Source: Bacteroidota bacterium (lineage in GTDB: Bacteria > Bacteroidota > Bacteroidia > Chitinophagales > Chitinophagaceae). From it: a DNA stretch of 64,000 nt. Positions 20,623 to 60,469 of this stretch are shown here, piece after piece (the first letter of the stretch is position 1; each line of letters begins with the position of its first letter). Made by a program: the position numbers and the translations under genes. The notes beneath the pieces were generated by a model. That model made no database searches, was not told the origin of the DNA, and worked only from the letters and a program-made list of their open reading frames with translations. Where the stretch lies: NCBI GenBank assembly GCA_023416995.1, contig JAEZGI010000044.1:5964-69963 (forward strand). The letters are read 5' to 3'.

Positions 20623-20646
20623 TTTTAAACTCTTTAATCGCTTAGT

Positions 20647-40615: not shown

Positions 40616-42178
40616 CTATGGAGTATCCCAAAATACTCTCGAAGTTAACTTATCACCACCCATTGCGGCAGCACCGGCATTATAATTGGTTGTATTCGCG
40701 GATGCTTCAACATCCGGGTAAGAAAGTCTTCTTACAAATCCACCCGACAATTTATCATTGAAAAGATTTGGCGCAAGTGTCGGATAACCACTTCTCCTGA
40801 AATTTGCAAAAGCTTCCGTGCCGTTTCTGATATTGACGATCCAGTACTGGGTGTTGATAAGCTCAAGGGCATCTGCAGAATTGTATGCAACATCTGGCGA
40901 AGCGATATAAGCAGCAATAGATGCCGGCGATATCGTTGAGGTATTGGGATAAAGGGGATAGATCTCCATATCGGCAGCTATACCATTTTCATAATGCGTT
41001 TTAGCTGTCGCGTCTCCACCAGGGATCCAGCCTCTTTTCGCTGCTTCTGCAAGCAGTAAACTTGTTTGCGCATAAGTAACCCAGAAATCCGGTGCAGCTG
41101 GTGATGCGATGGTCCATACATTGATCTGTGAGTAATTTAAACCACCCGCACGTGTACCTCTGTACGGTGCACCGGTTGCTATCCTTGAATCAGTTACTCC
41201 GATAGGGACGCCAAATTGGTTTGCTAATACAGTATCGGGAGCCGACTGACCAGCAACGTTACCCGGATCTGCGAAGTTTGCAAGAATGTATTTACCACGC
41301 GGATCGTTGGTTGTTTTCAGATGATTAACAAATGGTTCGGCTGCATAGTTAAACTGTGAGAAGTTACGCAACACGTTATTGTCACCAATCAAAAACAGGG
41401 TTCCGTCGTATTTAACATGGGCATTGTCTGCGTTGGAAGTCATAACACCGGCAGCGAAAGCTTCTGAAACAATTGACTGCGCTTTCGACGCATCAACTTT
41501 TGAATAACGCATCCCTAAACGTAATAGCAGGGAGTTACCCAATTTTTTCCATTTTGCTACCTGGTCCGCTGCATTGGCAGTACGGGTGGAAGCCTGGGCC
41601 TTTGCTCCATAAAAAAGATCCGCTGCTACAAAATCGCCGCCTGTGTTCAATGCAGCAACTGCTTCTTTCAGTTCTTTGTATAAATCAGCATAGATAGCGG
41701 CATCATCGTCGTATTTAGGATAGAACAACGCGTCAGAAACGGCTTTACCAGCTTCGAAGTAAGGCACATCACCGTACGCATCCACAAGCCCCATAAATAT
41801 CTGGGCTTTCCAGATGCGGAGCATGTTATAAAGATTTACTTGTGTAGTAGTGCCTTCCAGAAGATTCATAGCCTGGATGATATTTTTCAATGATCCGGTA
41901 TAACTATCCCATTTTGGCGTACTGATGCCATCAATGTCTTCATTGAAATTAAAACCCAGTGTAGCACCTGTATTATATGGCGACACGAATTGTTGTACTA
42001 TCGTATGTTCTGCGGTCCAGTTGCCGATATGGCTGCGTTGAGCACCTGCAAATAACAGCGCAGGGTCAACTTCGGTGATCGCATACGGGTTCGTATTAAT
42101 GTCTACAAAGTCTTTGTCGCAGGCTGCAAAAGTGAACAGCGAGCTAACAACAAGCAGACGTTTGATTGATTTTAGCAT
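40616..42178 (-). CDS. SusD-like (SusD-like_2 type) outer membrane lipoprotein
   Basis: The ATG at 42178 (MLKSIKRLLVVSSLFTFAACDKDFVDINTNP) is preferred. The track start at 42196 would overlap the SusC stop. Lipobox FAAC. The fold is TPR-like, alpha-helical and rich in A/Y/N. The position directly after SusC supports the call. Confidence 0.8.
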   Translation of the reverse strand: MLKSIKRLLVVSSLFTFAACDKDFVDINTNPYAITEVDPALLFAGAQRSHIGNWTAEHTIVQQFVSPYNTGATLGFNFNEDIDGISTPKWDSYTGSLKNIIQAMNLLEGTTTQVNLYNMLRIWKAQIFMGLVDAYGDVPYFEAGKAVSDALFYPKYDDDAAIYADLYKELKEAVAALNTGGDFVAADLFYGAKAQASTRTANAADQVAKWKKLGNSLLLRLGMRYSKVDASKAQSIVSEAFAAGVMTSNADNAHVKYDGTLFLIGDNNVLRNFSQFNYAAEPFVNHLKTTNDPRGKYILANFADPGNVAGQSAPDTVLANQFGVPIGVTDSRIATGAPYRGTRAGGLNYSQINVWTIASPAAPDFWVTYAQTSLLLAEAAKRGWIPGGDATAKTHYENGIAADMEIYPLYPNTSTISPASIAAYIASPDVAYNSADALELINTQYWIVNIRNGTEAFANFRRSGYPTLAPNLFNDKLSGGFVRRLSYPDVEASANTTNYNAGAAAMGGDKLTSRVFWDTP

Positions 42179-42182
42179 ATCG

Positions 42183-45100: not shown

Positions 45101-45383
45101 CCTGGATGGGTACTTCCTGTTTAAGATAGCCGACAGATGTAAATACCAGGGTTTCAGTGGGACGCGCGTTGATCGTAAATTCTCCTGATGCATTTGTAAC
45201 GGTAGCATTAGTAGAACCTTTTACCGCGACAGTTACATCCGGAACGGGCTTATTTTCAACATCAGTTACCTTACCGGTAATAGTCTGAGCATATAGCCCG
45301 GCGGTAGTAAGAAAGAAAATAAGGAGGAGAATACAGGAGCGGAAACATACCGGGCATAACACCGGCGGGAGTCTTTTCTTCAT
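42183..45383 (-). CDS. SusC/RagA-family TonB-linked transporter (no STN domain)
   Basis: 1066 aa. CarboxypepD_reg (GKVTDVENKPVPDVTVAVKGSTNATVTNASGEFTI), plug (DVVVIALGIRKDAKKLGYAVTSV; IESMTVLKGAAAAALYGSRAARGAIIITTKSG), C-terminal SLNVKF. Confidence 0.92.
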   Translation of the reverse strand: MKKRLPPVLCPVCFRSCILLLIFFLTTAGLYAQTITGKVTDVENKPVPDVTVAVKGSTNATVTNASGEFTINARPTETLVFTSVGYLKQEVPIQGRTNVSVVFQRSDETMDDVVVIALGIRKDAKKLGYAVTSVKTDELVTNRTTNVMESLEGRVAGLNITPPAAGAGASNQIRLRGQVGFAGADNSPLIVLNGLPLDQGARNAEGAGQQRDRGDNLANVNPDDIESMTVLKGAAAAALYGSRAARGAIIITTKSGQKNQGIGVDFTSSYTASQALNFMDEITQTEYGQGQSGQRFTTPGQIEANGQWGWGEKLDGVPTMNFDGVMRPYSAHPYQLFDYLQTGTNLTNTLGFSGGGANGSFRASISTTDAKGIVPSNEYKRTIFNIGVNQTIANKLRLQLNVNYADEDYINPPQVGTQGDGPVNFFTRMPISTPIEAYRESAVNAAGAEWKTNGFLGTVNNPFYALQKGQKYKEDRSRLLGTATLRYSITDWLYAQGRFNFDRGDNLVEWFSLNGTGSAVPTNNDGTYRGSYNLSQTTTTDINADFLVGVNKEFGKFSVDASFGGNTLRSEFKNPNQTASNFTVQNLYSIQNGTVKTQGFNYSRSRINSLYGLAEFGYNNLFYLNFTGRNDWFSVLNPERNSKFYPSVSGTFIFSELIKYQPWLTYGKVRASWAQVGSIAGVGPFEGLLTYTIEQNQFNGQTIAGVTGNNAPNPLLQPFTVTEKEVGLELRLFNNRLLVDVAAFDKVTTDQIVDVVLSTTSGYQNSKENQASLKNSGLETLIEYQPILRKNFSWTTSWNNAYLKTKVLDVGTPSGTRLLLYFNGTGNEFLGEIRYTEGLAMNQLYTRTYRRNDKGEIVVGDNGRLLESQGGPVGTGFVPVGSSIPKFTGGWSNTFNYKNLSLGIHIDYKFGGTILSSTLLNMTRQGHSKLSLEGRENGLIFPAVYASSGLPNTTAITVAGNGLQTFYTDYRNLQIGDPFTFKSDFVKLRNISLAYNFSKLIQKVDMFKFVKGLSLSASVRNAAILYKDLPGLDPEAVQSSGDIRAGYENSSLPTTRNYNISLNVKF

Positions 45384-45565
45384 ATTAGCAAGTTGTTTTG
45401 TAAATAAATTAGCCGAGGCGCGGCTTTACATGTACAAGATTCGCAATAGTTAAACAAAGAAACTTCCAGAAAACCACATCGTTGGATTTTGTACAGAATC
45501 TTTGTCAATTTCCCTGATATTTACGGCAGATATAAATCAACTGTTTATTTGCTAATGATTGCTTG

Positions 45566-46447
45566 ATGAGCCAATTTGTATTGCGACATGAGACTGCTCA
45601 TGAACTGCAAAAGTTTGTGCATATAGATGAATTTGCGTTTAAGAAGAATAATGCAATCAGCCTCAATTCCTTTAATGCGCCGTGCTCGGAGCATCTTCGC
45701 TTCTATTATATTATTGATGGAAAGTTTGATTGGATCATCAATAACGAACGGTTTACGCTATATCCAACTGACCTCGCACTGATTCTGCCGGGTCAGCAAC
45801 TTCTTGCTGAAAAAGGATATCTCGAGATTGGCTCACTATATTGGTTAAACCTCCGGGCAAATGTACCCGATGCACAAGTCAACAACTCAATTGGCGGTTG
45901 GAGTGACATTGCTCCCTCTGAGTTTATGTCTATCAAGAAGATACTATTTTGTCAAACTGCACTGGTCATTTCAAGATTGCCTGACGCGGGAAATATTTTC
46001 TCAAATCTGCGCTCAGAAATTTTTAACCAGGAAATTGGTTATGCTACCCGCGTGAATCATTTGCTGGATGAATTGCTGATTCTCACTACCAGGCAGATGA
46101 CGCGCCAAATCGTTTCCCAGCGCGACTTTCCGCAAACGTTCCTTAAACTTGAAGAAGCACTTCGTAAGGATCTGTCACATCCATGGACAGTGGAAGAAAT
46201 GGCGGCACTGGTCGGTTTAGGTACCACAGCATTCAGTGATAAGGTGAAAAGTTTCACGGGGTTTCCGCCAATGGGTTATCTCATTAACATCAGAATTTCA
46301 GAGGCTATCAGGTTATTAAAGAAGCCGGGTGCACAGGTTACCGATATAGCGCTTGACACTGGTTTTTACTCATCACAACATTTTGCGACAACATTTAAAA
46401 AGCTAACCGGGTACACTCCAAGTGAGTTTCGGAAAAATAATCTCTAA
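45566..46447 (+). CDS. AraC-family transcriptional regulator
   Basis: About 293 aa. N-terminal cupin-like sensor part. C-terminal double HTH (WTVEEMAALVGLGTTAFSDKVKSFTGFPPMGYLINIRISEAIRLLK...ITDIALDTGFYSSQHFATTFKKLTGYTPSEFRK). Confidence 0.9.
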   Translation: MSQFVLRHETAHELQKFVHIDEFAFKKNNAISLNSFNAPCSEHLRFYYIIDGKFDWIINNERFTLYPTDLALILPGQQLLAEKGYLEIGSLYWLNLRANVPDAQVNNSIGGWSDIAPSEFMSIKKILFCQTALVISRLPDAGNIFSNLRSEIFNQEIGYATRVNHLLDELLILTTRQMTRQIVSQRDFPQTFLKLEEALRKDLSHPWTVEEMAALVGLGTTAFSDKVKSFTGFPPMGYLINIRISEAIRLLKKPGAQVTDIALDTGFYSSQHFATTFKKLTGYTPSEFRKNNL

Positions 46448-46457: not shown

Positions 46458-47981
46458 ATGGCAGATAAAAACGAATGTATCATCACCATCGAGATAGGCA
46501 CAAACGCCGTAAGAGTGGTTGCCTTTGATCTGAAAGGCAACACACTGGCTTCAATGAAAGGATCATATCCCACATTTCATTCGCAGCCCGATTATAGTGA
46601 GCAGGATCCCGAACAGATCTTTATAACCATGCTGTATGTTTTAAAGAATCTGCTTAATGAACATATACATCCTAATAAGATCAATGTTACAAGCATTTGT
46701 TTTAGTGCTTCTATGCACAGTGTATTGGCGATTGATAAAAATGGAAGTCCTTTGGGTAATGCGATAACCTGGGCCGACAACCGTGCCAACCAGGAAGCGG
46801 AGATTTTAAAAAATTCGGTTTCGAGCAAAACCATTTATGAAGCTACGGGCACACCTTTACATCCGATGTCACCGTTATTTAAGATTGCGTGGTTTAAAAA
46901 CAATGATTCAGCGCGGTTCAAACAGGCAAGCAAATTTATTCAGCTGAAGACGTATATCATTCATCAGCTTACAGGTGAATATCATGTTGATTATAGCCTT
47001 GCTTCGGCCACAGGGATCTTAAATATTCATACAGTTAAGTGGGAACCCGGCGCATTGGATTATGCAGGTATAACCAGTGATAAACTTGCCGAACCTGTGC
47101 CTGTGTTTTCAACAGCAGGAAAACTTAAAAAAGCTTATCAGAATTCTTTAGGCGTCAACGGAGATACAAAGATCATTGTTGGTTCAAGCGATGGCTGTCT
47201 TGCTACACTGGGTGCAGGAGTATGGGATGAACGCAAAGCTACCATCACCATTGAAGACAGCGGAGCAGTGCGGGTTATCGGTAAAAAAGTTTTAAATGAT
47301 AGCCGCCAGCGGATCTTTAACTACCTGCTTACTGAAGATTGTTATGTTTCAGGTGGTCCCACCAATAATGGCGGTATAGTGCTTGAATGGTTCGCAAAAC
47401 AGTTTGGTGATTTTAAAGATCCGTTTGGTCTTGAATACACCATGAACGAAATGATTGCCGTAGCGGAGAAAGTCGATGCCGGCGCGGATGGTCTCATCTT
47501 TCTTCCATATCTGCTGGGTGAAAGGGCACCTATCTGGGACGCCAACGCAAGGGGCGTTTACTTCGGAATCAATATCAAACACGGGCGACAACATTTTATC
47601 AGGGCAGTGGTCGAAGGAATTTTGTTTGAGATATATAGTATTGGAAAAACATTAAAGGAGCATCGATCATTTGATAGTTTGTCTATTAATGGAAGTTTTG
47701 CATCCATACCGCTCTGTGCGCAGATTCTCTCTGATGTTTTTAATATGCCCGTAAGCATCAGTCAGCATAATTATAGTGTGGGCATTGGCGCCTATTTGCT
47801 CAGTGCAACTGAGATGGGTATTTACAGTAGCATTGATGAGGCTGCAAAAAGTATTGTATTAAGTGAACAGTATTTTCCGAAACAACATCTCAATAATACC
47901 TACATGAAACATTTTGAAATTTTTGAACAACTGACCATCAAGTTTAAGGATGATTTTGGAAACGTCGTCAAACTGCAGTAG
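46458..47981 (+). CDS. gntK: FGGY-family gluconate kinase
   Basis: The ATG at 46458 (MADKNECIITIEIGTNAVRVVAF) is preferred over the upstream GTG. Strong resemblance to FGGY-type GntK: FSASMHSVLAIDKNGSPLGNAITWADNR, GTPLHPMSPLFKIAWFK, DYSLASATGILN, GSSDGCLATLGAG, GGPTNNGGIVLEW, PYLLGERAPIWD. Confidence 0.78.
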   Translation: MADKNECIITIEIGTNAVRVVAFDLKGNTLASMKGSYPTFHSQPDYSEQDPEQIFITMLYVLKNLLNEHIHPNKINVTSICFSASMHSVLAIDKNGSPLGNAITWADNRANQEAEILKNSVSSKTIYEATGTPLHPMSPLFKIAWFKNNDSARFKQASKFIQLKTYIIHQLTGEYHVDYSLASATGILNIHTVKWEPGALDYAGITSDKLAEPVPVFSTAGKLKKAYQNSLGVNGDTKIIVGSSDGCLATLGAGVWDERKATITIEDSGAVRVIGKKVLNDSRQRIFNYLLTEDCYVSGGPTNNGGIVLEWFAKQFGDFKDPFGLEYTMNEMIAVAEKVDAGADGLIFLPYLLGERAPIWDANARGVYFGINIKHGRQHFIRAVVEGILFEIYSIGKTLKEHRSFDSLSINGSFASIPLCAQILSDVFNMPVSISQHNYSVGIGAYLLSATEMGIYSSIDEAAKSIVLSEQYFPKQHLNNTYMKHFEIFEQLTIKFKDDFGNVVKLQ

Positions 47982-48059
47982 AAGGTCTCCGTCAAATGAT
48001 TATTGGCGCCTCACGTGTAAACAAATTTTTTCAAACCAAACCAAATTCACATTAAGCGT

Positions 48060-49181
48060 ATGACTGCTGTAAAAAAACCGTTTTATACCACTTGCTACAT
48101 TGTGGCTCTGATTGCCATACTGGCTTTTGCTTATACCACATTTCAAGAATTATATACCTGGTCAGGAGTTTTGTTGACAGTGTTTTTTGTAATCCTTGCT
48201 ATTGCTTTCCGGGGAAGCAGGTATTTAAAGGGTTACTGGTATAGTGTATTGATCCTGGCTGTGGCTTCCGCAGCGATGTATTTCCCGGAACAATTCAGAA
48301 CCGTGGGCGGAAGAGAGTCTTCCTTTTTTATACCTATCCTGTTGCAGGTCATCATGTTTGGAATGGGCACTGAATTGAGTCTTAAAGACTTTAAACAGGT
48401 ACTATCTATGCCAAAGGGGGTTATAGTTGGTACACTGTGCCATTATACAATTATGCCTTTGGTAGGTTATTCAGTAGCTCATTTGTTTGACTTCCCCGGG
48501 GAGATAGCAGCAGGAATTATATTGATTGGATGCTGCCCCAGTGGTCTTGCATCCAATGTAATGTGTTATCTGGCAAAGGCAAACCTGGCGTTATCGGTTT
48601 CGGTGACAACAGTTTCAACGCTTGTAGCGCCATTTCTTACGCCACTTCTTATGCGACTTCTGGGCGGCAGTTATGTCGAGATCGATCTCTGGGCGATGGT
48701 TTGGGAAATCACACAGATCGTGATCCTGCCTATCGCAGCCGGGCTGGCTTTTCATTATATCCTTCGCGGAAAGGTACAATGGCTGGATAAGGCAATGCCT
48801 GTTATCTCGATGGTTGGGATAGCGTTGGTTTTACTGGTGATTACGGCTGCGGGAAGAGATAACTTATTAAAGGTCGGAGGTCTGTTGATTGTCGCCACTT
48901 TTATCCATAACATGTCGGGTTATTTTCTGGGGTACTGGTCCGCGAGGCTTTTGAAGTTCCCCGAAAGTGATTGCCGCACTATTGCCCTTGAAGTTGGAAT
49001 GCAAAATGCCGGTCTTGCTTCAGCTTTAGCTAAAGCCATGGGCAAGATTGCCACGATGGGACTGGCCTCTGTCATCTTTGGAACGATGATGAATGTTACC
49101 GGTTCTTCTCTTGCAACCTGGTGGCACAACCGTCCTCCAAAAGATGCACCTGAAGAAAAAGAGCCAGTATTAACCAATTAA
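48060..49181 (+). CDS. Bile acid:sodium symporter (BASS/SBF) family transporter; substrate unknown
   Basis: 373 aa, polytopic. BASS signatures MFGMGTELSLKDF, GIILIGCCPSGLASNVM and ALEVGMQNAGLA. Confidence 0.8.
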   Translation: MTAVKKPFYTTCYIVALIAILAFAYTTFQELYTWSGVLLTVFFVILAIAFRGSRYLKGYWYSVLILAVASAAMYFPEQFRTVGGRESSFFIPILLQVIMFGMGTELSLKDFKQVLSMPKGVIVGTLCHYTIMPLVGYSVAHLFDFPGEIAAGIILIGCCPSGLASNVMCYLAKANLALSVSVTTVSTLVAPFLTPLLMRLLGGSYVEIDLWAMVWEITQIVILPIAAGLAFHYILRGKVQWLDKAMPVISMVGIALVLLVITAAGRDNLLKVGGLLIVATFIHNMSGYFLGYWSARLLKFPESDCRTIALEVGMQNAGLASALAKAMGKIATMGLASVIFGTMMNVTGSSLATWWHNRPPKDAPEEKEPVLTN

Positions 49182-49211
49182 TTATCCATAACTCAATTAA
49201 AAATAAAAATC

Positions 49212-50162
49212 ATGATGAAGTACCTGTTGCTGGTGGCCATTAGTGTCTGTGTTGGCCTGAGCGCCAATAGTCAAAAAGTCCAGATCAGTAAAGAAGAATT
49301 AATCGGACTTACTGCTGAGTGGAAGGGCGAACGTTTTCCTGATGGCCGGCCAAAAGTGTCAGATGATATTATTCGCCGCATGAAAAACGTAAGCGTTGAA
49401 GAAGCGTGGGCAACCATGAGTAATGCCGGATATCGATACCAGATTGCAGAAGGTTGGGAGATGATCCATCCTGACAGCGTGTTGGTAGGTCGTGCGGTGA
49501 CAGCCACCTTTATGCCCGGACGTCCTGATGTGTGGGCTGCTATCGATTCCTTAGGAAAAAAAGAAGGCAGAAGGGCGCAGAATGTATGGGCCGTTGAGAT
49601 GCTTACAAAAGGTGATGTTTATGTCGCGGACCAGTTTGGCGCAAAAAGAAACGGACCAACTGTCGGAGATAATGTCGGCAACGCGATATACGCGAAAACA
49701 GGCAACGGTATTGTTTACGACGGCGCTTTGCGTGATTTGGAGGGTCTTCGTGAGATCCCTGGCTTCACATCGTTTTATACCAGCTACGATCCTTCATATC
49801 ATAACCCTGGTTTCGGACCTAACAGGGATCTTACCACGATGATTGTTGGCATCAACAAACCCACACGTATCAGAACAGTAACTGTAATGCCCGGCGATGT
49901 GGTGTTGGGCAAGATGGGTGTAGTGGTATTCATTCCGCCGCACCTGGCAGAAAGAGTTGTTACAACTTCCGAGATCGTGCGCCTCAGGGATATGTTTGGG
50001 CACCAACGATTGAAGGAAGGTAAATACACTGCCGGGCAAATTGATACCCGCTGGTCTGACGAAATTGAAAAGGATTTCTCGAAATGGCTCAATGATCATA
50101 TTAACGAATTACCCGTTGGAAAAGATCAGATTCAGGAGTTTCTGAAACAACGTACCTGGTAA
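49212..50162 (+). CDS. RraA-like / class II (HMG/CHA-type) pyruvate-aldolase-like protein with a Sec signal peptide (paralog 1)
   Basis: 316 aa. Signal MMKYLLLVAISVCVGLSANSQ. RraA-fold motifs GRAVTATFMPGRPD, KGDVYVADQFG..GPTVGDNVGNAIYAKTGNGIVYDGALRDLEGLREI, VMPGDVVLGKMGVVVFIP. Confidence 0.72.
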   Translation: MMKYLLLVAISVCVGLSANSQKVQISKEELIGLTAEWKGERFPDGRPKVSDDIIRRMKNVSVEEAWATMSNAGYRYQIAEGWEMIHPDSVLVGRAVTATFMPGRPDVWAAIDSLGKKEGRRAQNVWAVEMLTKGDVYVADQFGAKRNGPTVGDNVGNAIYAKTGNGIVYDGALRDLEGLREIPGFTSFYTSYDPSYHNPGFGPNRDLTTMIVGINKPTRIRTVTVMPGDVVLGKMGVVVFIPPHLAERVVTTSEIVRLRDMFGHQRLKEGKYTAGQIDTRWSDEIEKDFSKWLNDHINELPVGKDQIQEFLKQRTW

Positions 50163-50198
50163 CATTAACCATATTAAGGACATATAAAAACGATCAAA

Positions 50199-51476
50199 AT
50201 GTCAAATTCATCAAGAAGAAGTTTCCTGGGGAAAGCAGCACTTATGAGTGCCCTAACACCTTTCGCAGCTATGTCAACCTTTGGGCGGGGGTTAGAAGAA
50301 GCAGTAGAAAAAATACCAAAGGTTTCAACGCCATCGGATCTTAAAATCAAAGATGTTACCTGTGCATTTATCAGGGGAAGTCTTTTTATCAAGATGACCA
50401 CTAACCAGGACATAATTGGTTACGGCGAAGGAGTTGATGCTGTGCCAGGAACTTATTATCTCGCAAAAAACTTTGGTAACAGACTTAAAGGAAGAAGCCC
50501 GCTTAATGTAAACCGGTTGGTAGAAGATATCCGCAAAGGTGGTTTCTTCCAGGGGGCACAATCCGGGATGTATATTGCAGTTTTGTCAGCCATTGAACAT
50601 GCACTCTGGGATCTTACAGGAAAAGCATTTGGTATGCCCGTCTACCAGTTGATGGGTGGTAAATACCGTGATAAGGTACGTGTGTATTGTGATACGGCTT
50701 TGTATCAGACTAATAATCCGAAACCAAAAGATTTTGCAGAGGCGGCTAAAAAATCAAAGGACATGGGTTTCAACGCCATCAAATTTGATTTGGACCAGGC
50801 CGGCGATCCGGGCAAATATGATCGTTACAACTGGACCGCCAGCCCGATGGAACTGCGCCGTATGATGGAGCAGATGTCTGCTGCACGCGAGGCAGTGGGG
50901 CCCGACGTTGATATCTGCGTGGATATGCATGGCCGTTATGATGCAGTTACCGGCGACAAAGTAGCGAAGATGCTTGAGCCACTTAACCTGATGTGGTTAG
51001 AGGAACCTATTCCTGCTGAAAATCCCGAGGCTTATAAAAAGATAACAGATTCAACAAGTACACCGATCTGTGCAGGTGAGAACCATTACCTGGCTTATGG
51101 CTTTAAAAGATTGCTCGACATTGGCGCCGTTGATATCGTAATGCCGGATCTTCAGAAATGTGGTGGTCTTGCCGAAGGTCAACGTATTGCTAATCTGGCT
51201 AACTTAACATATGTGCCCTTTGCACCACACATGGTAGCATCTTTCCTGGGTGCCATGGCCTGTGCGCATGTTTGTGCTTCAGTTCCTAACTTCCTGATCA
51301 TGGAATGGCAATCTTATTTTCATACCAATAAGATGTTCAGGGAAATTGTAAAATATGATGGTGAGTGGGTAGATAAAAGCTTTATTACCGTTTCTGATAA
51401 GCCTGGAATAGGAGTAGATCTTAACGAAGAGGGAATGAAAAAATATGCGATTCCCGGGGTTCCATTTTTTGAATAA
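50199..51476 (+). CDS. Enolase-superfamily (mandelate racemase/muconate lactonizing, acid-sugar dehydratase-like) enzyme with a twin-arginine (Tat) signal
   Basis: 425 aa. N-terminus MSNSSRRSFLGKAALMSALTPFAAMS (SRRxFLG Tat motif). Capping/barrel motifs IIGYGEG, AIEHALWDLTGKAFGMPVYQLMGGKYRDKVRVY, AIKFDLD, CVDMHGR, WLEEPIP, ICAGENH. Confidence 0.85.
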   Translation: MSNSSRRSFLGKAALMSALTPFAAMSTFGRGLEEAVEKIPKVSTPSDLKIKDVTCAFIRGSLFIKMTTNQDIIGYGEGVDAVPGTYYLAKNFGNRLKGRSPLNVNRLVEDIRKGGFFQGAQSGMYIAVLSAIEHALWDLTGKAFGMPVYQLMGGKYRDKVRVYCDTALYQTNNPKPKDFAEAAKKSKDMGFNAIKFDLDQAGDPGKYDRYNWTASPMELRRMMEQMSAAREAVGPDVDICVDMHGRYDAVTGDKVAKMLEPLNLMWLEEPIPAENPEAYKKITDSTSTPICAGENHYLAYGFKRLLDIGAVDIVMPDLQKCGGLAEGQRIANLANLTYVPFAPHMVASFLGAMACAHVCASVPNFLIMEWQSYFHTNKMFREIVKYDGEWVDKSFITVSDKPGIGVDLNEEGMKKYAIPGVPFFE

Positions 51477-51536
51477 CTAATAAATGATAGTAGAGGTTTG
51501 TGTGGTGAATGACAGGTGAAACCTAAATGTTGTTAC

Positions 51537-52460
51537 ATGAAATTGAAAAGCATCTTATATTTTCTGTTACTACAAGTGGTGTTCACTTGTTATTCAACTG
51601 CACAAACCATTTCCAAAGAAGAGTTGATATTTCTTACTTCAGAATGGAAGGGCGAACGTTTCAGTGACGGGCGCCCCAAAATTCCTGATCATCTTTTAGA
51701 ACGTGCCAAACATATCATGATTGATGATGCGTGGACCGTTTTAAAAAACGAGGGATATCTCAATCAGTTTGAAGGCAACTGGAAAACGCTTAACGATACT
51801 CCAATGACGGGTAGGGCTCTTACAGCTATGTACATGCCTGGCAGACCTGATGTAGAAAAAAATATCAAACAGAGAGGAGCTGCCGCGGGGCGAAAGGGTA
51901 ATACCAATTCCTGGCCGATTGATATTCTCGTAAGAGGGGACATCTATATTGCTGATGCATTTGGTAAAATAAGCGGAGGCTCTATTATGGGCGCTACTTT
52001 AGCCAATTCCATTTATAGTAAATCGGGTAATGGAGTGGTATTTAACGGAGCCGCAAGAGATCTGCAGGAGATCAGAAATATCAAAGGTTTCAATGCCTTT
52101 GTACGTGACTTCCACCCGTCTTTTACTGAGGAAATGGTATTGATGGGATTAAACTCCGCGATCCGTATCGGTAACGTAATGGTACTGCCAGGCGACCTGG
52201 TGATCGCTCAGAAGGAGGGTGTGCTGTTTGTTCCTGCCCATTTGGCGGAACTGGTTGTGACTACCGGTGAGTTTGTGATCCGGAAGGATCAGTTTGGTTT
52301 TGAAATGGTGCGAACCGGCAAATACAGCACCGGCGAAATTGACAGCCAATGGACAGAAGAAATGAAATCTGAGTTTCTGCGCTGGCTGGAGAAACATCCT
52401 GAATTAGGAAAGATGACGCCTGCCGAGGTGGATAAAATGATGAGTAAAAGAACCTGGTAA
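51537..52460 (+). CDS. RraA-like / class II pyruvate-aldolase-like protein with a Sec signal peptide (paralog 2)
   Basis: The ATG at 51537 (MKLKSILYFLLLQVVFTCYSTAQ) is preferred over the GTG at 51516. Same architecture as 49212-50162: ISKEELIFLTSEWKGERFSDGRPK, GRALTAMYMPGRPD, RGDIYIADAFG, GNGVVFNGAARDLQEIRNI. Both paralogs end in RTW. Confidence 0.72.
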   Translation: MKLKSILYFLLLQVVFTCYSTAQTISKEELIFLTSEWKGERFSDGRPKIPDHLLERAKHIMIDDAWTVLKNEGYLNQFEGNWKTLNDTPMTGRALTAMYMPGRPDVEKNIKQRGAAAGRKGNTNSWPIDILVRGDIYIADAFGKISGGSIMGATLANSIYSKSGNGVVFNGAARDLQEIRNIKGFNAFVRDFHPSFTEEMVLMGLNSAIRIGNVMVLPGDLVIAQKEGVLFVPAHLAELVVTTGEFVIRKDQFGFEMVRTGKYSTGEIDSQWTEEMKSEFLRWLEKHPELGKMTPAEVDKMMSKRTW

Positions 52461-52511
52461 AAAGAGTACGATAACTGTTTAATTACATCCTGGTTATTTA
52501 AAACAAACTTT

Positions 52512-53504
52512 ATGAAAAAGACAGCAATGGCCTTGTTTTGTTTGATCCTGCTAAAAAATTCAACCGCGCAGGAAAACAAACCGGGTTCAGCCAGTATTGA
52601 TTTTGTATCAAACGAACTCTCGCGAATTATTAATAAGAATGCAAAAGTTGAAACTATAGCTGAAGGTTTTCAATTCACTGAAGGGCCGGTATGGATAGAG
52701 AAAGAGCAAATGTTATTGTTTTCGGATGTGCCTGCAAATACGATCTATAAATGGACCGAAGCCAAAGGCAAAGAAGTTTATATAAAACCTTCAGGATACA
52801 CGGATAGCCGGCAGCGTGGAGGCTTTATGGGTTCCAACGGTCTTCTGCTTTCTAAAGAAGGAGATTTGTTGGTGTGTCAGCATGGTGATAGACGAGTTGC
52901 AAAGATGGACGCTCCTTTAAATGCCCCGGCCTCAAAATTTGTTACTGTAGTGAGCGAATACCAGGGCAAAAGGCTCAATAGCCCGAATGACCTGTTTTTG
53001 ACCGCTTCAGGAGATTTGTATTTTACTGATCCATCGTATGGTTTTGAAAAGCCTGGTGATGCCAGCAAAGAAATACCTTTCCAGGGTGTATACAGATTAA
53101 ACAAAGCCGGGGAAATAAAGCTGCTGGTCGATTCACTTTCTCAACCCAATGGCATTGCTATTTTTCCTGATGGTAAAACACTATTGATATCAGACTCTGG
53201 TCCGGGAAAAAACAAATGGTATGTTTATAATATTGGTACAGATGGAACCCTGAACAATGGAAGAATTTTTTATGATGCGGGTAATGACAAGGGTATGGGT
53301 GGAAGCGATGGTTTCAAAATCGACAAAGATGGTAACGTTTTTGCCACAGGACCCGGAGGAGTTTATATCTTTACAAAAGCAGGTAAACTAATCGGTAAGA
53401 TCAAAGTGAATGGGGCGGTTGCAGCAAATTGTGCTTTGACGCCAGATGGGAAAACGCTTTTTATAACTGCTACCGGTTATCTGCTCAGGGTAAAAATGCG
53501 GTAG
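52512..53504 (+). CDS. SMP-30/gluconolactonase/LRE-family lactonase, exported
   Basis: 330 aa. Signal MKKTAMALFCLILLKNSTAQ. Six-bladed propeller motifs FTEGPVW, LLFSDVPANTIYKW, SNGLLLSKEGDLLVCQHG, NSPNDLFLTASGDLYFTDP, QPNGIAIFPDGKTLLISD, SDGFKIDKDGNVFATGPGGVYIF. Confidence 0.85.
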   Translation: MKKTAMALFCLILLKNSTAQENKPGSASIDFVSNELSRIINKNAKVETIAEGFQFTEGPVWIEKEQMLLFSDVPANTIYKWTEAKGKEVYIKPSGYTDSRQRGGFMGSNGLLLSKEGDLLVCQHGDRRVAKMDAPLNAPASKFVTVVSEYQGKRLNSPNDLFLTASGDLYFTDPSYGFEKPGDASKEIPFQGVYRLNKAGEIKLLVDSLSQPNGIAIFPDGKTLLISDSGPGKNKWYVYNIGTDGTLNNGRIFYDAGNDKGMGGSDGFKIDKDGNVFATGPGGVYIFTKAGKLIGKIKVNGAVAANCALTPDGKTLFITATGYLLRVKMR

Positions 53505-53534
53505 GATCAAACAAAGATAAAATTTAGCTAAGTA

Positions 53535-53990
53535 ATGGACCATCTGATTAAAGCAGCAAAAACAAGCAGAAAATTATACCTCGCGCTTTTTGAGAAATAT
53601 ACGCTTGATCAGATGAATGTTGTGCCTGATAAGTTTAATAACAACATCATCTGGAACATTGGTCATATTGTTGCTGCGCAGCAATCGCTTGTTTACAAAA
53701 CATCGAACCTTCCAATGTATATTTCCGATGCTTTTTTTGATCGGTATAAACCCGGAACCCGTCCGGTGGGAAGGGTTACATCAGACGAGGCCGAAGAAAT
53801 CAAATCCCTTTTAATCTCAATGATTGAAAAAACAGAATCCGACCTGGTTAATGGTAAATTTGTCTCCTTCACTGAACGCAATACCATAACGGGTTTTCAT
53901 CTGGGCAAACTTGAAGATGCATTGGTCTTTAATATCTATCACGAGGGCCTGCACATGGGTTATATAAACAGCATTGGAAGATTCGTGTAA
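53535..53990 (+). CDS. DinB-superfamily protein
   Basis: 151 aa. Four-helix-bundle family pattern (IIWNIGHIVAAQQSLVY ... YHEGLHMGYI), with the conserved His residues typical of DinB_2-like proteins. Confidence 0.65.
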   Translation: MDHLIKAAKTSRKLYLALFEKYTLDQMNVVPDKFNNNIIWNIGHIVAAQQSLVYKTSNLPMYISDAFFDRYKPGTRPVGRVTSDEAEEIKSLLISMIEKTESDLVNGKFVSFTERNTITGFHLGKLEDALVFNIYHEGLHMGYINSIGRFV

Positions 53991-54008
53991 TAATCGGAAC
54001 GGACCTGG

Positions 54009-54347
54009 TTACGGTTTGACGCGGGTAAGTTTCATTTCACCTCTTTCATTTTTCACCAGGAGTTCATTTTCGTTGATTACTTCTCCGGTGTTTTTAATGG
54101 TCATTTCATTGAAAGAAATGCTATAAGAGAACTTTTTGCCGTCAACTTTTCCATCTTCAATTTTGATTTCACCAAACTCGGTTTTCAAAACCCCGGTAAG
54201 TTGATTGCCTTCCACCTTAAGCGTGTAATTTAATTCGATGGTGCCGTTTGGTGTTTCGCGTGTTCCCTTCCAATTGCCATCAATGGCATTCTGCGCGAAA
54301 GCAGTAGCAGTTCCAAAAATCAAGAGGAGGCTGAATAAGTACTTCAT
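54009..54347 (-). CDS. Small secreted hypothetical protein (beta-rich)
   Basis: 112 aa. Signal MKYLFSLLLIFGTATAFAQ. The mature part has alternating beta-strand character (GNWKGTRETPNGTIELNYTLKVEGNQLTGVLKTEFGEIKIEDGKVDGKKFSYSISF). Last gene of the PQQ-dehydrogenase / bicupin operon. Confidence 0.5.
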   Translation of the reverse strand: MKYLFSLLLIFGTATAFAQNAIDGNWKGTRETPNGTIELNYTLKVEGNQLTGVLKTEFGEIKIEDGKVDGKKFSYSISFNEMTIKNTGEVINENELLVKNERGEMKLTRVKP

Positions 54348-54408
54348 GGTAATTGATTTGATTAGTGATTAATATAAATTGCAAACTTAGCTGAGAATGT
54401 TACTGTGA

Positions 54409-55626
54409 TTATCGCTGGTCATCATCGCCCATCACATCATAACCGCGCCATTTGAATTCTTTGGCCAGGCTGGTAGCGGCTGGCCAGGCGATCTTGTGTT
54501 GTTCACTGGCGACCCATTTGCGACGATTGGCTTCCGTGTCGAATGAGATCTGGATCTGGTAGTTGAAAGTTGTTGGTTCTGCTTCTATTTCTTTTGCTAC
54601 ATGCTCAGGGTATAGTCTTAACAGCTTTGACTCGAGATAACCTTGTTGAACAAGCATGGCTGGCACATAAATAGAATGATACATCTTTTCAAATGCAGCC
54701 GCGTTTTCACTCGTAACAACAAAATCCATCTGCAGTACCATTGCTTTCGGGTTCAGTAACCGCCCTGTGCTGGTAACACTTTTTTCTTTAGATGCAGCAA
54801 TACCGATTACCAGCACCTCAAGTCCTTCATTACTTTTACCCGTTAAACTGATGTTTTCTCCAAGCTTCCCATAAAAAGCATCATCAGCTTTAACGGGGAG
54901 CGTTTCGTTGTTAATCGTGACTGTTCCTGCTCCTTTCAAAACATAATACACTTCTTCAATGCCATCCAACAAACGTGTTCCGGTTGAGCTGTCTGCTGCT
55001 ATCAGGAGATGGTCAACATGATGCCAGTTAGTGCTGAAGATATCGGGTCCAAATACACGGCGAAATAAATTGGTGTTACCTGTACCGGCAGCTTTCAAAG
55101 GTTTCAGTTTGTTTTGTTCTAGTCTTCCGGATACAAAAACAGGAATCGGATCGAGAGTTGCGCCAGCCCGGGTGTCGGTAAGATCAAAATTGTCTGAACG
55201 GCCCTTGGTTTTACTCACAGCAAAGTTTAACCAGCGAACGGGTTCCTTTGAAGCATTGTGGATGGCGTGTGCATCACCCATTTTGCAGGGTACAATTGCA
55301 GGTGCTTTTATTTTTGATGTCCTTCCGTTGATGGTGAATTCGGCTTCCCCGCTTAACAAAACATACATCTCTTCAATTGTGTGGTGGAAGTGATGACCGA
55401 TGCCTGATTTTGCATGGATGGAGCCCGAATGCAGATACAGGAAATTGGTTCCCAGTTCACTTCTGCCAATTAGTTGGGTAAATGCCATTTTCCCCGCACC
55501 GGCATGCACTGCACTAAGCGTTCTGTATTTAGTGGAATCATTGCGGATAACCCTTTCTTTCATGGTCTGTGCAATCGCACAAAGAGTGAACATTATAAGC
55601 AACGATGTAACAGTTATACGTTTCAT
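54409..55626 (-). CDS. Exported bicupin protein fused to a C-terminal ABM-like (dimeric alpha/beta-barrel) domain
   Basis: 405 aa. Signal MKRITVTSLLIMFTLCAIAQ. Cupin 1 has an intact metal motif (GIGHHFHHTIEEMYVLLSGEAEF...GDAHAIHN). Cupin 2 is degenerate (GIEEVYYVLKGAGTVTINN). The C-terminal ~100 aa (MVLQMDFVVTSENAAAFEKMYHSIYVPAM...ISFDTEANRRKWVASEQH) looks ABM-like. Confidence 0.65.
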   Translation of the reverse strand: MKRITVTSLLIMFTLCAIAQTMKERVIRNDSTKYRTLSAVHAGAGKMAFTQLIGRSELGTNFLYLHSGSIHAKSGIGHHFHHTIEEMYVLLSGEAEFTINGRTSKIKAPAIVPCKMGDAHAIHNASKEPVRWLNFAVSKTKGRSDNFDLTDTRAGATLDPIPVFVSGRLEQNKLKPLKAAGTGNTNLFRRVFGPDIFSTNWHHVDHLLIAADSSTGTRLLDGIEEVYYVLKGAGTVTINNETLPVKADDAFYGKLGENISLTGKSNEGLEVLVIGIAASKEKSVTSTGRLLNPKAMVLQMDFVVTSENAAAFEKMYHSIYVPAMLVQQGYLESKLLRLYPEHVAKEIEAEPTTFNYQIQISFDTEANRRKWVASEQHKIAWPAATSLAKEFKWRGYDVMGDDDQR

Positions 55627-55657
55627 AATGATGAGATGGTTTAAACTACTTTAATGA

Positions 55658-57910
55658 TCAGTTTTTTTTACCGGGGATGGCGAATACCACATAGCCTTTT
55701 TTCATTGCTCCCGGTTTCGCAGCATGATTATAGCTATCAGGTGCAAAGTTTCCGCTTGCATTTACAACGAGGTATTGTTTTCCCTGTAAGGTATACATGG
55801 TCGGTTGTCCCTGAACTTCATTGCTTAGTGTTGTTTCCCAAAGAATCTTTCCATTGTCTGCATCAAAGGCATAAAGCTTGCCGCCTTTGGCCGTCGCAAA
55901 CACAATGCCGGTTGATGTAACTACCATCCCTTTTCTTAACACGCCGGCAGGGGCACCTTTTGATTTGTCACCCTTTACAAATGCTGAATCTTCACCAACG
56001 GGCATTCTCCATTTGATGGTACCATTGTTCAGATCATATGCAAATATCGAAGACCAGGGTGGTGCAGCAAGTCCCATCCATTCCGTACCATAATCGGTTG
56101 TATACCGGTTTTCAGGATGGTCAACACCTTCCGGGTATTCAGACATAGGAGTGGCCTTTGTTTCGTCGGCCTTTATACGCGCACCGTTCGAATCTACTAC
56201 AGGTCCGGAAATTGGTTTGTTGTTGCCCATTCGGCCGGGAAAGTTGAAGCTGCGTGGAATCCCGCCCATAAAACGGAACAAAGCGTTCAGCGTTTGTTCA
56301 TCAACGTGAGTGATACCGGGCATTCTTCCGCGGCCGTTTTGAACAATGTTTTTAAATTCATCATAAAACATGCGCTGACCGATATTCACAAGTGATGGAC
56401 CTACCAATCCCTGCATTTTATCACCATGGCAACTTTGACAGTTCCCATTATAAAATGTAGTAATTTTTTTAAGATCATTGTCAGACAGATCAATTTTCGG
56501 TGGTTCTACCTTGTTTAGCTTGTAGACCGATGCATATTCCTGGGCCAGGATATACATTATTCCTTTACCGGGGTCAGATGCTGTATTGCCATAATTAGCT
56601 CCACCCAATGCGCCTGGCATTGCGATTGTTTCATGTTTATCTGAAAGTGGAATGTACAGGCCGGATTTAGCTGATTCGAGTCTTTTGAGCCAGTTTTGTT
56701 TTATGCTGTCAGGAAAAAAAGGATTCAGTGTTTCCTTTGTTACTTCGTGCCTTGTAAAATCGGGCAGGGAGGATATTGGCTGTGTTGGCCAGGCTTTCTC
56801 CCCGGGCATTTCGCTGGCAGGGAAAGGTTTCTCTTCAATCGGAAACAAGGTTTCGCCCGTTTCGCGGTTAAACACAAACACAAAACCATGTTTTGTTGCT
56901 ATAGAAACCGCATCAACCTTTTTTCCTTCATGTTGAACCGTTATAAGTTGCGGAGCGGCTGACAGGTCATAGTCCCAAATATCATGATGCACGGTCTGAT
57001 AATGCCAGATTCGTTTACCGGTGGCAGCTTCAAGCGCCACGAGAGAATTCCCGAAAAGGTTACTTCCTAAACGATCGGCCCCATAATAATCATAGGTTGG
57101 CGAACCAAGCGGCAAAAACACAATACCTCTTTCTTCGTCGACCGACATCTCGCTCCACACATTTACCCCTCCCACATATTTGTAGGCATCTTTTGGCCAG
57201 GTGTCGTAGCCAAATTCACCGGGATGGGGAATGGTGTGAAAGGTCCATTCCAGTTTTCCTGTGATTAAATTATAAGCACGTATATGGCCCGGTGCAGAAA
57301 AAAAACCTTCACCCGGTGCTGACCCGATTATAAGGAGGTCTTTATAGATAACGCCGGGTGTCATGGCCTGCATGCGACGAATGGATGTTGGGTCGCGGTC
57401 AAGTCCTACACGCATATCCACATAGCCACTGTCGCCAAAAGTCTTGATTGACTTTCCCGTGATCGCATCGATCTCCTGGATGGAATTGTTCAATGTGAAC
57501 ACCAGACGTTTATCTTTCCCATCCTGGCTTTGCCAGTAGTTGATACCTCTTCTTGATATACCCGGCAGTTTTGTATGAATCCAGATCTCGTTGCCCGTTT
57601 TAACGTTCAATGCAACGAGCGATGAATTCTTCGCATATACATACATGATAGTATCGACCACGATGGGTTGAAACATGTAAGGAATATTGTCATCAGTTAA
57701 ATACGACCAGGCAATCTCCAGTTGATTGACATTGTCTTTTGTTATTTCAGACGCTTCGAAGAATTTGGATTGATCCGGTCCGCCGCCGTATTGCGACCAG
57801 GTAGTATGTTTAGCAGGAGCCGGGCCAGGGCCGCAGCTTAAATATGATAATAAACCTATTGATACAACAATAATACAAGCGCTTTTAGTCAGCTTTGGTC
57901 TGATAATCAT
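55658..57910 (-). CDS. PQQ-dependent dehydrogenase (beta-propeller quinoprotein) lipoprotein with an internally inserted c-type cytochrome module
   Basis: The ATG at 57910 (MIIRPKLTKSACIIVVSIGLLSYLSCG, lipobox LSC) is preferred over the upstream TTG at 57994. Quinoprotein N-terminus WSQYGGGPDQSKFFEASEITKDNVNQLEIAWSY and repeated propeller W-motifs. Heme motif CQSCH at 56426-56440 with a downstream GRMPG (candidate Met ligand). Propeller-like blades resume after the cytochrome segment (FAYDLNNGTIKW, GGKLYAFDADNGKILW). Confidence 0.8.
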   Translation of the reverse strand: MIIRPKLTKSACIIVVSIGLLSYLSCGPGPAPAKHTTWSQYGGGPDQSKFFEASEITKDNVNQLEIAWSYLTDDNIPYMFQPIVVDTIMYVYAKNSSLVALNVKTGNEIWIHTKLPGISRRGINYWQSQDGKDKRLVFTLNNSIQEIDAITGKSIKTFGDSGYVDMRVGLDRDPTSIRRMQAMTPGVIYKDLLIIGSAPGEGFFSAPGHIRAYNLITGKLEWTFHTIPHPGEFGYDTWPKDAYKYVGGVNVWSEMSVDEERGIVFLPLGSPTYDYYGADRLGSNLFGNSLVALEAATGKRIWHYQTVHHDIWDYDLSAAPQLITVQHEGKKVDAVSIATKHGFVFVFNRETGETLFPIEEKPFPASEMPGEKAWPTQPISSLPDFTRHEVTKETLNPFFPDSIKQNWLKRLESAKSGLYIPLSDKHETIAMPGALGGANYGNTASDPGKGIMYILAQEYASVYKLNKVEPPKIDLSDNDLKKITTFYNGNCQSCHGDKMQGLVGPSLVNIGQRMFYDEFKNIVQNGRGRMPGITHVDEQTLNALFRFMGGIPRSFNFPGRMGNNKPISGPVVDSNGARIKADETKATPMSEYPEGVDHPENRYTTDYGTEWMGLAAPPWSSIFAYDLNNGTIKWRMPVGEDSAFVKGDKSKGAPAGVLRKGMVVTSTGIVFATAKGGKLYAFDADNGKILWETTLSNEVQGQPTMYTLQGKQYLVVNASGNFAPDSYNHAAKPGAMKKGYVVFAIPGKKN

Positions 57911-58875: not shown

Positions 58876-58983
58876 CGCGGCGTCTGCATCTTCTTTTTTT
58901 CCGCACCTTGCTTCTGCAAAAAAATTATTTCCTCCTGATAGGGGATTTATCAATTTCAGCCGTACTGCTGTTTACCGGAGCAT

Positions 58984-60429: not shown

Positions 60430-60469
60430 CATTTACAAAAGATTATTACCAGAACGCTCTGTTTCAAAA

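Follow-up and report, generated by a model that had tools for sequence, protein, structure and literature searches.

Sugar-acid dehydratases and pyruvate aldolases are, to our knowledge, textbook cytoplasmic enzymes, and we know of no periplasmic sugar metabolism that continues beyond oxidation and lactone hydrolysis. Here, we examined a locus in a 64 kb stretch of Bacteroidota DNA (hereafter, the window), in which a first-pass annotation made from the sequence had placed a candidate periplasmic sugar-acid pathway at positions 46458-57910. Open reading frames (ORFs) of the window were checked against Pfam and NCBIfam, and nearest structures were sought in the PDB. At the center of the locus, a gene for an RraA-fold protein with a Sec signal precedes one for an enolase-superfamily (MR_MLE) protein with a twin-arginine translocation (Tat) signal; both lie beside a BASS-family transporter gene and close to a SusC/SusD pair. 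We lean toward reading the system as a Bacteroidota sugar-acid locus in which the first committed step of catabolism has been relocated to the periplasm.

Several described systems resemble parts of this arrangement. The periplasmic glucose-oxidation route of pseudomonads comprises a pyrroloquinoline quinone (PQQ) glucose dehydrogenase, a gluconolactonase, gluconate uptake and a gluconokinase, and its periplasmic steps stop at oxidation. Proteins of similar type are encoded in the window, namely a PQQ-type dehydrogenase and an SGL lactonase, both with export signals, and a gluconokinase-like FGGY protein of the cytoplasm, but its module would add dehydration, and possibly carbon-carbon cleavage, outside the cytoplasm, and conservation of the locus does not extend to the PQQ enzyme. 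In Escherichia coli, the GudD/GarL and YfaW/YfaU pairs set an enolase-superfamily dehydratase beside a divalent-metal class II pyruvate aldolase that cleaves the 2-keto-3-deoxy product. The window pair follows the same logic, with conserved catalytic residues and predicted activity; in contrast to the E. coli pairs, the partner has the RraA fold rather than an HpcH/HpaI TIM barrel, and both proteins are predicted to be exported. Bacteroidota polysaccharide utilization loci (PULs) with Tat-exported Gfo/Idh/MocA 3-keto-glycoside enzymes also put 'cytoplasmic' families in the periplasm. They share with the present module a SusC/SusD-linked Tat export, and one member of the RraA family is fused to a 3-keto-disaccharide hydrolase, whereas the predicted chemistry of the module is acid-sugar dehydration and an aldolase-like step carried out by other enzyme families, in many loci without a glycoside hydrolase.

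The non-phosphorylative Weimberg and Dahms pentose pathways, above all in their archaeal form (Sulfolobus D-arabinonate dehydratase, KdaD, KGSA dehydrogenase), employ the same enzyme families in a matching logical sequence. Every version known is cytoplasmic, whereas the Bacteroidota dehydratase bears a Tat signal and is accompanied by an exported RraA-fold protein, BASS and SusC/SusD. An enolase-type pentonate dehydratase combined with a FAH-type KdaD is the archaeal Weimberg arrangement, and neither the periplasm nor signal peptides come up in a 2022 review of the Weimberg and Dahms enzymes (PMC9795676).

None of these systems is known to have an enolase-superfamily dehydratase or a protein of the RraA fold outside the cytoplasm. 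Relative to them, the new elements are the compartment, the enzyme family in the aldolase slot and the link to SusC/SusD and BASS; the chemistry itself is known. In agreement with the first-pass annotation, which was aware of no such module, we found no description of it in the full-text literature searched, where subscription journals are thinly covered and an earlier description is possible. A Maribacter arabinogalactan proteome paper does not mention the module.

Conservation and export signals of the RraA/MR_MLE pair

In a genome scan, the RraA alignment matched at least 588 places in species-representative genomes. For 86 loci, 83 of them non-redundant, ORFs were called, compared with the window proteins by BLAST and clustered. 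RraA-like genes were found in 82 of the 83 loci and Tat-type MR_MLE genes in 79. The two occur together in 79/83, with RraA first and MR_MLE normally the next gene downstream on the same strand, which bears out the proposed co-occurrence of a Tat-type enolase with signal-bearing RraA-like genes. BASS is present in 53 loci and adjoins the pair in 52 of these; SusC was detected in 44 and SusD in at least 33. The core unit is SusC/SusD, exported RraA, exported MR_MLE and BASS. Other genes were less frequent: AraC in 27 loci, FGGY in 25 (directly upstream of BASS in nine), aldehyde dehydrogenase and IlvD in 10 each, ECF sigma and FecR in 10 and 9, FAH and SDR in eight each, and the SGL lactonase in approximately five. 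The PQQ dehydrogenase and the bicupin were each found in 2/83 loci and DinB in 0/83, with the full set of 86 likewise free of DinB matches. We class the PQQ dehydrogenase, bicupin, small exported protein and DinB as lineage-specific additions and the lactonase as an occasional member. The exported dehydratase and RraA-like proteins of the first-pass annotation thus recur, in synteny, in hundreds of genomes, while its sequence from PQQ dehydrogenase through lactonase and uptake to kinase is not what is conserved.

Around this core, locus composition varies. A second paralogous pair, consisting of RraA type T2 and a type-B MR_MLE (490 residues, 31-34% identity) that also carries a Tat motif (RR-x-F-L-K-K), is frequent. 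Minimal loci of the Algoriphagus type consist only of sigma/anti-sigma factors, SusC, SusD, two RraA/MR_MLE pairs and BASS, with neither a glycoside hydrolase nor a cytoplasmic enzyme. Many module loci lack any glycoside hydrolase, and esterases and xylan/arabinan glycosidases surround many others. The order is RraA-MR_MLE-BASS-FAH-Aldedh-IlvD-GntP in a Mucilaginibacter operon and BASS-KdgK-Eda in Flagellimonas, and in one locus (L020) genes for exported proteins surround a signal-less FAH gene, and IlvD is absent from the neighborhood. In three Spirosoma/Larkinella loci (L048, L055, L059), the pair has no BASS or SusC/SusD nearby; the genes that come after it encode a CE15 glucuronoyl esterase, UxuA, a GH67 alpha-glucuronidase and an SDR. 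The arrangement closest to that of the window is L013, where PQQ dehydrogenase, lactonase, MR_MLE and RraA genes occur together. As a separate observation, L048 holds two ORFs with Tat-type N-termini, judged by N-terminal sequence alone, that resemble sugar-phosphate isomerases and Gfo/Idh/MocA proteins.

Export signals were judged from the N-terminal sequence and its conservation among homologues. The window MR_MLE begins with MSNSSRRSFLGK, followed by a hydrophobic stretch; the Tat motif is SRRSFLGK and the signal spans approximately residues 1-30. Of the 120 database homologues closest to it, 117 keep the RR motif, as do 78 of 79 type-A orthologues (62-91% identity) from loci of Chitinophagales, Sphingobacteriales, Cytophagales and Flavobacteriales. 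Since the nearest solved relative, the cytoplasmic Rubrobacter protein 2qq6 (310 bits), aligns only from residue 49 onward, the first ~40 residues of the window protein appear to be an added export signal. In the type-B proteins (~490 aa; L002:6382-7833, L039:13226-14713 and ~30 other loci), 25-35 conserved residues precede the twin-arginine motif, for example MTPSQKFLAKLGLKD... and MK..LQ.II.K.KEQE..Y..QRQAEI.NP.T. An n-region of this length is out of the ordinary; it might bind a chaperone or have a regulatory role.

Sec-type signal peptides are visible in RraA1, RraA2, the SGL lactonase, the small protein and the bicupin, and the PQQ protein has a lipoprotein-like hydrophobic stretch ending ...LSYLSC; no signal was seen in the N-terminal sequence of the FGGY kinase or DinB. 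The RraA1 signal peptide covers approximately residues 1-21, the mature protein starting at Q22. A hydrophobic N-terminal segment precedes the conserved mature N-terminus in 100 of 101 RraA-like orthologues. These signal peptides are variable and hydrophobic, and they end in A-x-A or S-x-A before the conserved Q-(Q)-I-S-K-E-E-L-...-W-K-G-E-R-F; cleavage after A-x-A and before Q is typical of Bacteroidota signal peptides. The exported family is compact: a scan of 1.84 billion cluster representatives yielded 130 clusters at E <= 1e-30, or ~130 clusters at 50% identity, and most full-length members carry a signal peptide, with a few beginning right at the mature sequence. Because the signals are conserved across both the MR_MLE and the RraA-like families, they are not the product of mis-called starts.

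Catalytic residues of the dehydratase and the RraA-fold proteins

The window MR_MLE has the capping and modified TIM barrel domains of the enolase superfamily. None of 15 NCBIfam models reached its equivalog cut-off, the best being galactonate dehydratase NF010624 (245 vs 311 bits). In a 110-sequence alignment of type A, type B and cytoplasmic proteins, K195, D197, D242, E268, E294, D317, H344, H357 and E369 are essentially invariant, and D242, H244, E268, E294, D317 and H344 are kept in 72/72 exported type-A proteins and 5/5 cytoplasmic relatives. By comparison with GalD/ManD-type enzymes, we take D242, E268 and E294 to be metal ligands, H344/D317 the general-base dyad and the D-x-H motif the source of the acid. 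This motif of galactonate-dehydratase-like enzymes is common to type A and the cytoplasmic clade; type-B proteins have Y/F there, and a His two residues later. With metal ligands and dyad intact, the window MR_MLE is likely a catalytically competent acid-sugar dehydratase.

We used the 2qq6 sequence to find signal-less relatives, which are ~40% identical to the window MR_MLE, and inspected six genomic contexts. FAH was adjacent in 5/6, an aldehyde dehydrogenase was near in 3/6 and an RraA-like gene (~220 residues, without a signal) was present in 3/6; sugar ABC transporters, zinc-type dehydrogenases and lactonase-like genes also occurred, as did, once, GH3 and an acetyl-xylan esterase. Orthology of the actinobacterial cytoplasmic RraA-like genes with the exported family was considered and rejected (27% identity over 116 residues), leaving an association at the superfamily level only.

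An AlphaFold2 model of RraA1 built from a diverse alignment reached a mean confidence (pLDDT) of 89.7 and matched the RraA-fold structures 3k4i, 5x15, 3noj and 2c5q, with yeast YER010C among the matches; an earlier model from a shallow alignment (84-100% identity) had a pLDDT of 57 and was discarded. RraA1 shares its fold with the HMG/CHA aldolase LigK/PcmE (3noj; Foldseek E 4e-13), and in a profile alignment its residues D153, R174 and D175 correspond to D102, R123 and D124 of that enzyme, its metal-site and catalytic residues. All three are invariant in 83 sequences. In contrast to 3noj, to which it is 16% identical, RraA1 has a signal peptide, a sugar-acid context instead of aromatic degradation, and ~60 extra residues at each end (N-terminal W-K-G-E-R-F-x-D-G-R-P-K; C-terminal, ending R-T-W). 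The LigK NCBIfam models gave the RraA-like proteins 26-42 bits against cut-offs of 179-304, with no equivalog-level similarity. We regard an aldolase or related enolate-forming role for the RraA-like protein as an even call.

RraA2 is 41% identical to RraA1 and belongs to a subtype (T3) seen in only ~8 loci; in the window it is not paired with an MR_MLE of its own. It has GAT instead of GDN and therefore no equivalent of D102. Position 153 is A or S in all seven T3 orthologues, with R174 and D175 kept, and as a paralogue RraA2 may be inactive or differ in its catalysis.

Two cluster representatives with fused domains hint at a glycoside-related periplasmic role for the family. One (P0362) has a complete 3-keto-disaccharide-hydrolase (DUF1080) domain between its signal peptide and its RraA-like domain; in the other (P0369), a signal peptide and a ~100-residue domain precede the RraA-like domain. 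This ~100-residue domain weakly resembles the small protein encoded at 54009-54347 of the window (pairwise E 0.003). Apparent fusions of RraA to SDR, GH2, GH3 and SGL fragments (P0411, P0412, P0488, P0442) were set aside, as their partner domains are partial and they are likely assembly or gene-call chimeras.

Proposed pathway and alternative readings

Building on the observed gene content and synteny and on the conserved export signals and catalytic residues, we infer the substrate, the RraA-like chemistry and the BASS cargo as follows. SusC/SusD would bring an aldonic acid or lactone across the outer membrane, most plausibly pentonates or hexonates from hemicellulose sugars, free or as oxidized oligosaccharide ends, and the lactonase, where encoded, would open lactones. 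The MR_MLE protein would fold and load its metal in the cytoplasm, undergo Tat export and dehydrate the aldonate to a 2-keto-3-deoxy acid. Its Sec-exported RraA-fold partner, co-diversifying with the dehydratase, would act on that 2-keto acid as a divalent-metal enzyme of the HMG/CHA-aldolase type, most likely by retro-aldol cleavage to pyruvate and a short aldehyde, and BASS would import the 2-keto-3-deoxy acid, pyruvate, or both. In the cytoplasm, a KdaD-like FAH protein would turn imported 2-keto-3-deoxy-pentonate into 2-oxoglutarate semialdehyde, which an aldehyde dehydrogenase (in related loci) would take to 2-oxoglutarate. In some genomes, KdgK and Eda would replace this FAH/aldehyde dehydrogenase route, and the IlvD-type dehydratase would handle aldonate imported intact. 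Given export, dehydration in the periplasm is very likely, and import of a 2-keto acid by BASS is likely.

The cytoplasmic half of this scheme is encoded next to the exported half. A SusC/SusD-IlvD-FAH operon lies directly upstream of the AraC-kinase operon and is transcribed divergently, with GH43, a LacI regulator and GH51 also present. The window IlvD scores 753 bits to the Rhizobium L-arabinonate dehydratase 5j83 and 820 bits to 8ej0, and the FAH protein scores 208 bits (E 1e-60) to the Sulfolobus KdaD 2q18 and is 51% identical to FAHs beside cytoplasmic 2qq6-clade MR_MLE genes in Rubrobacter and Anaerolineae. Of the Weimberg enzymes, the window encodes predicted IlvD-type and MR_MLE dehydratases and the KdaD-like FAH, with no aldehyde dehydrogenase among the annotated window ORFs. 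The divergent operon appears to supply the cytoplasmic steps of a Weimberg-type route for pentonates, joined to an outer-membrane uptake pair, SusC/SusD at 40616-45383 being the presumed uptake step. Pentonate substrates fit this context of GH43, GH51, IlvD and KdaD.

Together, these data suggest that the Bacteroidota dehydratase of a Weimberg-type pathway gained a Tat signal while its downstream FAH partner stayed cytoplasmic. With the dehydratase exported and FAH in the cytoplasm, the 2-keto-3-deoxy acid or a derivative must pass into the cell, and no inner-membrane protein other than BASS is a constant part of the locus. Because BASS is the constant neighbor of the RraA/MR_MLE pair, its candidacy as importer of the periplasmic 2-keto-acid product, already put forward in the first-pass annotation, is well supported. 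BASS subfamily scores remain below their cut-offs (TIGR00841, 231 vs 326; PanS, 258 vs 400).

Two versions of the last steps remain. In the first, retro-aldol cleavage to pyruvate and an aldehyde would take place in the periplasm and pyruvate would be imported; for this version speak the intact aldolase residues, the strict pairing and co-diversification of RraA and MR_MLE, the Algoriphagus-type loci and the recurrence of RraA-like genes in cytoplasmic clusters. In the second, BASS would import the intact 2-keto-3-deoxy acid, for which the Mucilaginibacter BASS-FAH-Aldedh, Flagellimonas BASS-KdgK-Eda and Chitinophagaceae FGGY-BASS arrangements and the L020 FAH speak. The 51% identity of FAH to the FAH partners of the 2qq6 clade, together with FAH-Aldedh or KdgK-Eda directly after BASS, indicates that some or all of the 2-keto-3-deoxy acid would enter the cell uncleaved. 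Given FAH and KdgK-Eda beside BASS, the first-pass claim that aldonates are broken down to small keto acids in the periplasm is not established.

Several points weigh against our reading. Full periplasmic cleavage would leave FAH, KdgK and Eda without an imported substrate, while a periplasmic aldolase looks wasteful if BASS takes the intact acid, and the two versions are unreconciled. The replacement of GDN by GAT in RraA2 also speaks against it, as does a SusC/SusD pair, which is unusual for a monomeric sugar acid. The dehydratase, RraA-like proteins, BASS and kinase all fall short of every NCBIfam equivalog cut-off, and for each member of the module export and enzyme activity are predictions from sequence. 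Finally, the Spirosoma pair with CE15, GH67 and UxuA suggests glucuronate-type rather than aldonate substrates.

The best surviving alternative, which we nevertheless consider rather unlikely, corresponds to the original proposal that the whole non-phosphorylative route is periplasmic, with PQQ-dependent oxidation, lactone opening, dehydration and RraA cleavage all preceding the import of only pyruvate or small keto acids by BASS. The intact aldolase residues of RraA1 and the minimal loci without a cytoplasmic enzyme are consistent with it, and both the window and L013 encode PQQ dehydrogenase, lactonase, MR_MLE and RraA together. Plant BASS2 and BASS6 are relatives that carry pyruvate and glycolate. 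Against this, PQQ dehydrogenase and lactonase genes are rare (2/83 and ~5/83 loci), the PQQ protein is distant from any characterized enzyme, and a KdaD-like FAH, Aldedh, KdgK-Eda or FGGY beside BASS in many genomes argues that a larger acid is imported.

Improbable, too, is a role in the breakdown of uronic-acid-type substrates of glucuronoxylan (4-O-methyl-glucuronate or an aldarate), in which MR_MLE would remove the carboxylate-adjacent proton and eliminate the 4-substituent as water or methanol, the RraA-like protein would process the 4-deoxy-5-keto acid, and BASS would import the product for KdgK/Eda-type metabolism. Elimination of a 4-O substituent beside a C5 proton has precedent in the enolase superfamily, for example in glucarate dehydratase and galactarolactone cycloisomerase, and the cycloisomerase 4ggb matches the window MR_MLE at 139 bits. 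The CE15, UxuA, GH67 and SDR genes behind the Spirosoma pair, KdgK and Eda after BASS in Flagellimonas, and the esterases and xylan/arabinan glycosidases around many loci also fit this chemistry. However, the uronate context is confined to 3/83 loci, the glucarate dehydratase NCBIfam model gives the window MR_MLE only 19 bits, and the closest signal-less relatives lie in clusters of aldose dehydrogenase, lactonase, FAH and Aldedh genes that are typical of aldonates.

A speculative variant, to which we give similarly little credence, is reducing-end 'peeling' of oxidized oligosaccharides that end in an aldonic acid, such as products of lytic polysaccharide monooxygenase, cellobiose dehydrogenase or oligosaccharide oxidase. 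SusC/SusD would import the oligosaccharide, the Tat dehydratase would make its terminal aldonate a 4-O-glycosylated 2-keto-3-deoxy acid, and the RraA-fold enzyme would enolize C3 and expel the glycan by beta-elimination instead of aldol cleavage, releasing a shortened normal oligosaccharide and a 2-keto acid for BASS import. If true, this would be a new non-hydrolytic cleavage of glycosidic bonds and would explain both the periplasmic enzymes and the tie to SusC/SusD.

An ordinary cytoplasmic Weimberg/Dahms route, with N-terminal extensions that are not functional signals or with dual localization through internal starts, is very hard to credit: the window MR_MLE has internal Met residues (M16, M25), a few family members begin at the conserved mature N-terminus and export is predicted from sequence, but the RR motif and hydrophobic region persist in all but one of the 79 type-A orthologues and likewise in the paralogous type-B clade, each family keeps its own kind of signal, Tat or Sec, from one order to the next, and the A-x-A/Q cleavage pattern is typical of Bacteroidota.

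If the favored reading, a sugar-acid locus with its first committed step in the periplasm, is true, periplasmic catabolism would be extended by one or two chemical steps. It would provide the first functional context for the exported RraA-fold family, which is without a characterized member, and would suggest a physiological substrate class, sugar-acid-derived 2-keto acids, for bacterial BASS transporters. The module occurs in several hundred Bacteroidota species at the least and points to sugar acids and oxidized glycan ends as a nutrient class scavenged by soil Bacteroidota with PUL-like machinery, which is of relevance to lignocellulose turnover and to the engineering of oxidative pentose pathways.

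Layout of the window and accessory genes

All ten genes of the first-pass annotation were recovered with their domains and N-terminal signals in the ORF list and in Pfam/NCBIfam searches (Table 1). Its starting point at 46458 proved too narrow, as the conserved system also holds the AraC regulator and the divergent SusC-SusD-IlvD-FAH operon. Because intergenic gaps between the plus-strand genes from AraC (45563) to DinB (53990) are 11-78 bp, these genes are consistent with a single operon. In keeping with a PUL, the window has adjacent SusC/SusD genes, an AraC regulator and processing enzymes, with GH43 and GH51 downstream. A promoter/terminator scan found promoter-like sites to be fewer than in shuffled sequence and nothing informative; Bacteroidota promoters are not sigma-70-like.

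Table 1. Coordinates of the genes discussed (window positions) and the main basis for each assignment.
Feature	Position	Strand	Basis and remarks
FAH-family KdaD-like 2-keto-3-deoxy-pentonate dehydratase (predicted), cytoplasmic	37840..38673	-	Signal-less; PDB 2q18 match
IlvD/EDD-family aldonate dehydratase (predicted), cytoplasmic	38737..40452	-	Signal-less; PDB 5j83, 8ej0 matches
SusD-like lipoprotein	40616..42196	-	Pfam SusD-like_2 239 bits
SusC-like TonB-dependent transporter	42183..45383	-	Plug and CarbopepD_reg seen in orthologues
AraC-family regulator	45563..46447	+	First plus-strand operon gene; orthologues HTH_18/HTH_AraC at same position
FGGY kinase, cytoplasmic	46458..47981	+	Pfam FGGY_N, FGGY_C; without signal
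BASS/SBF transporter, inner-membrane	48060..49181	+	Pfam SBF 147 bits
RraA-fold protein 1 (type T1)	49212..50162	+	Sec signal; Pfam RraA-like 59 bits
MR_MLE enolase-superfamily acid-sugar dehydratase (predicted)	50199..51476	+	Tat signal; MR_MLE_C 200 bits, MR_MLE_N 34 bits
RraA-fold protein 2 (type T3)	51516/51537..52460	+	Sec signal; Pfam RraA-like 61 bits
SMP-30/SGL lactonase	52512..53504	+	Sec signal; Pfam SGL 150 bits
DinB_2 protein	53535..53990	+	Without signal peptide; Pfam DinB_2 67 bits
Small exported protein	54009..54347	-	Signal peptide visible in sequence
Two-cupin protein, exported	54409..55626	-	Pfam Cupin_2 twice; Sec-type signal
PQQ eight-bladed propeller dehydrogenase with inserted cytochrome c	55658..57910	-	PQQ 521 bits; Cytochrome_CBB3 43 bits

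For the protein first called a gluconokinase, membership of the FGGY family is clear, while the more specific name falls short: the best NCBIfam model, gntK_FGGY (TIGR01314), gives 431 bits, below its equivalog cut-off of 648. The best PDB match is the gluconate kinase 3gbt (313 bits), and the protein is a putative sugar or sugar-acid kinase of gluconokinase-like type. In the PDB, the SGL lactonase matches 3e5z, a putative gluconolactonase, and 3dr2, an exported one.

The PQQ protein, proposed earlier as an aldose oxidizer, is not close to characterized glucose dehydrogenases; its nearest PDB structure is a quinohemoprotein alcohol dehydrogenase at only 130 bits, so an aldose would be a putative substrate. 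Homologues were found only in L009 and L013, and no PQQ biosynthesis genes were seen among the annotated window ORFs. Its cytochrome c domain (residues 480-548) is not appended but interrupts the propeller, lying between segments. The longest ORF begins 28 codons upstream, at a TTG (57994), and the ATG at 57910 gives the lipoprotein-like signal.

The bicupin, for which an ABM part had also been claimed, has the two cupins, while the ABM-like tail is sub-threshold (DUF4286, 19.6 bits). Its homologues are confined to L013 and L019, and those of the small exported protein occur in L009 and L012. In L009 (15426-17393), a single 656-residue protein joins the cupin and SGL lactonase domains that are separate genes in the window.

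The wider window is a dense PUL region, with at least four further SusC/SusD pairs (2663-7104, 15281-22095, 25134-29861 and 58333-63779). Two of these are accompanied by an ECF sigma factor and a FecR anti-sigma factor, and one SusC has an STN signaling domain. Downstream of a SusC/SusD pair, positions 7128-10707 hold three consecutive ORFs (445, 514 and 255 aa) with no Pfam match at E <= 1e-5. A FAD oxidoreductase with a Golvesin_C domain is encoded at 22191-24182 and an FG-GAP/UnbV_ASPIC protein at 29982-33368.

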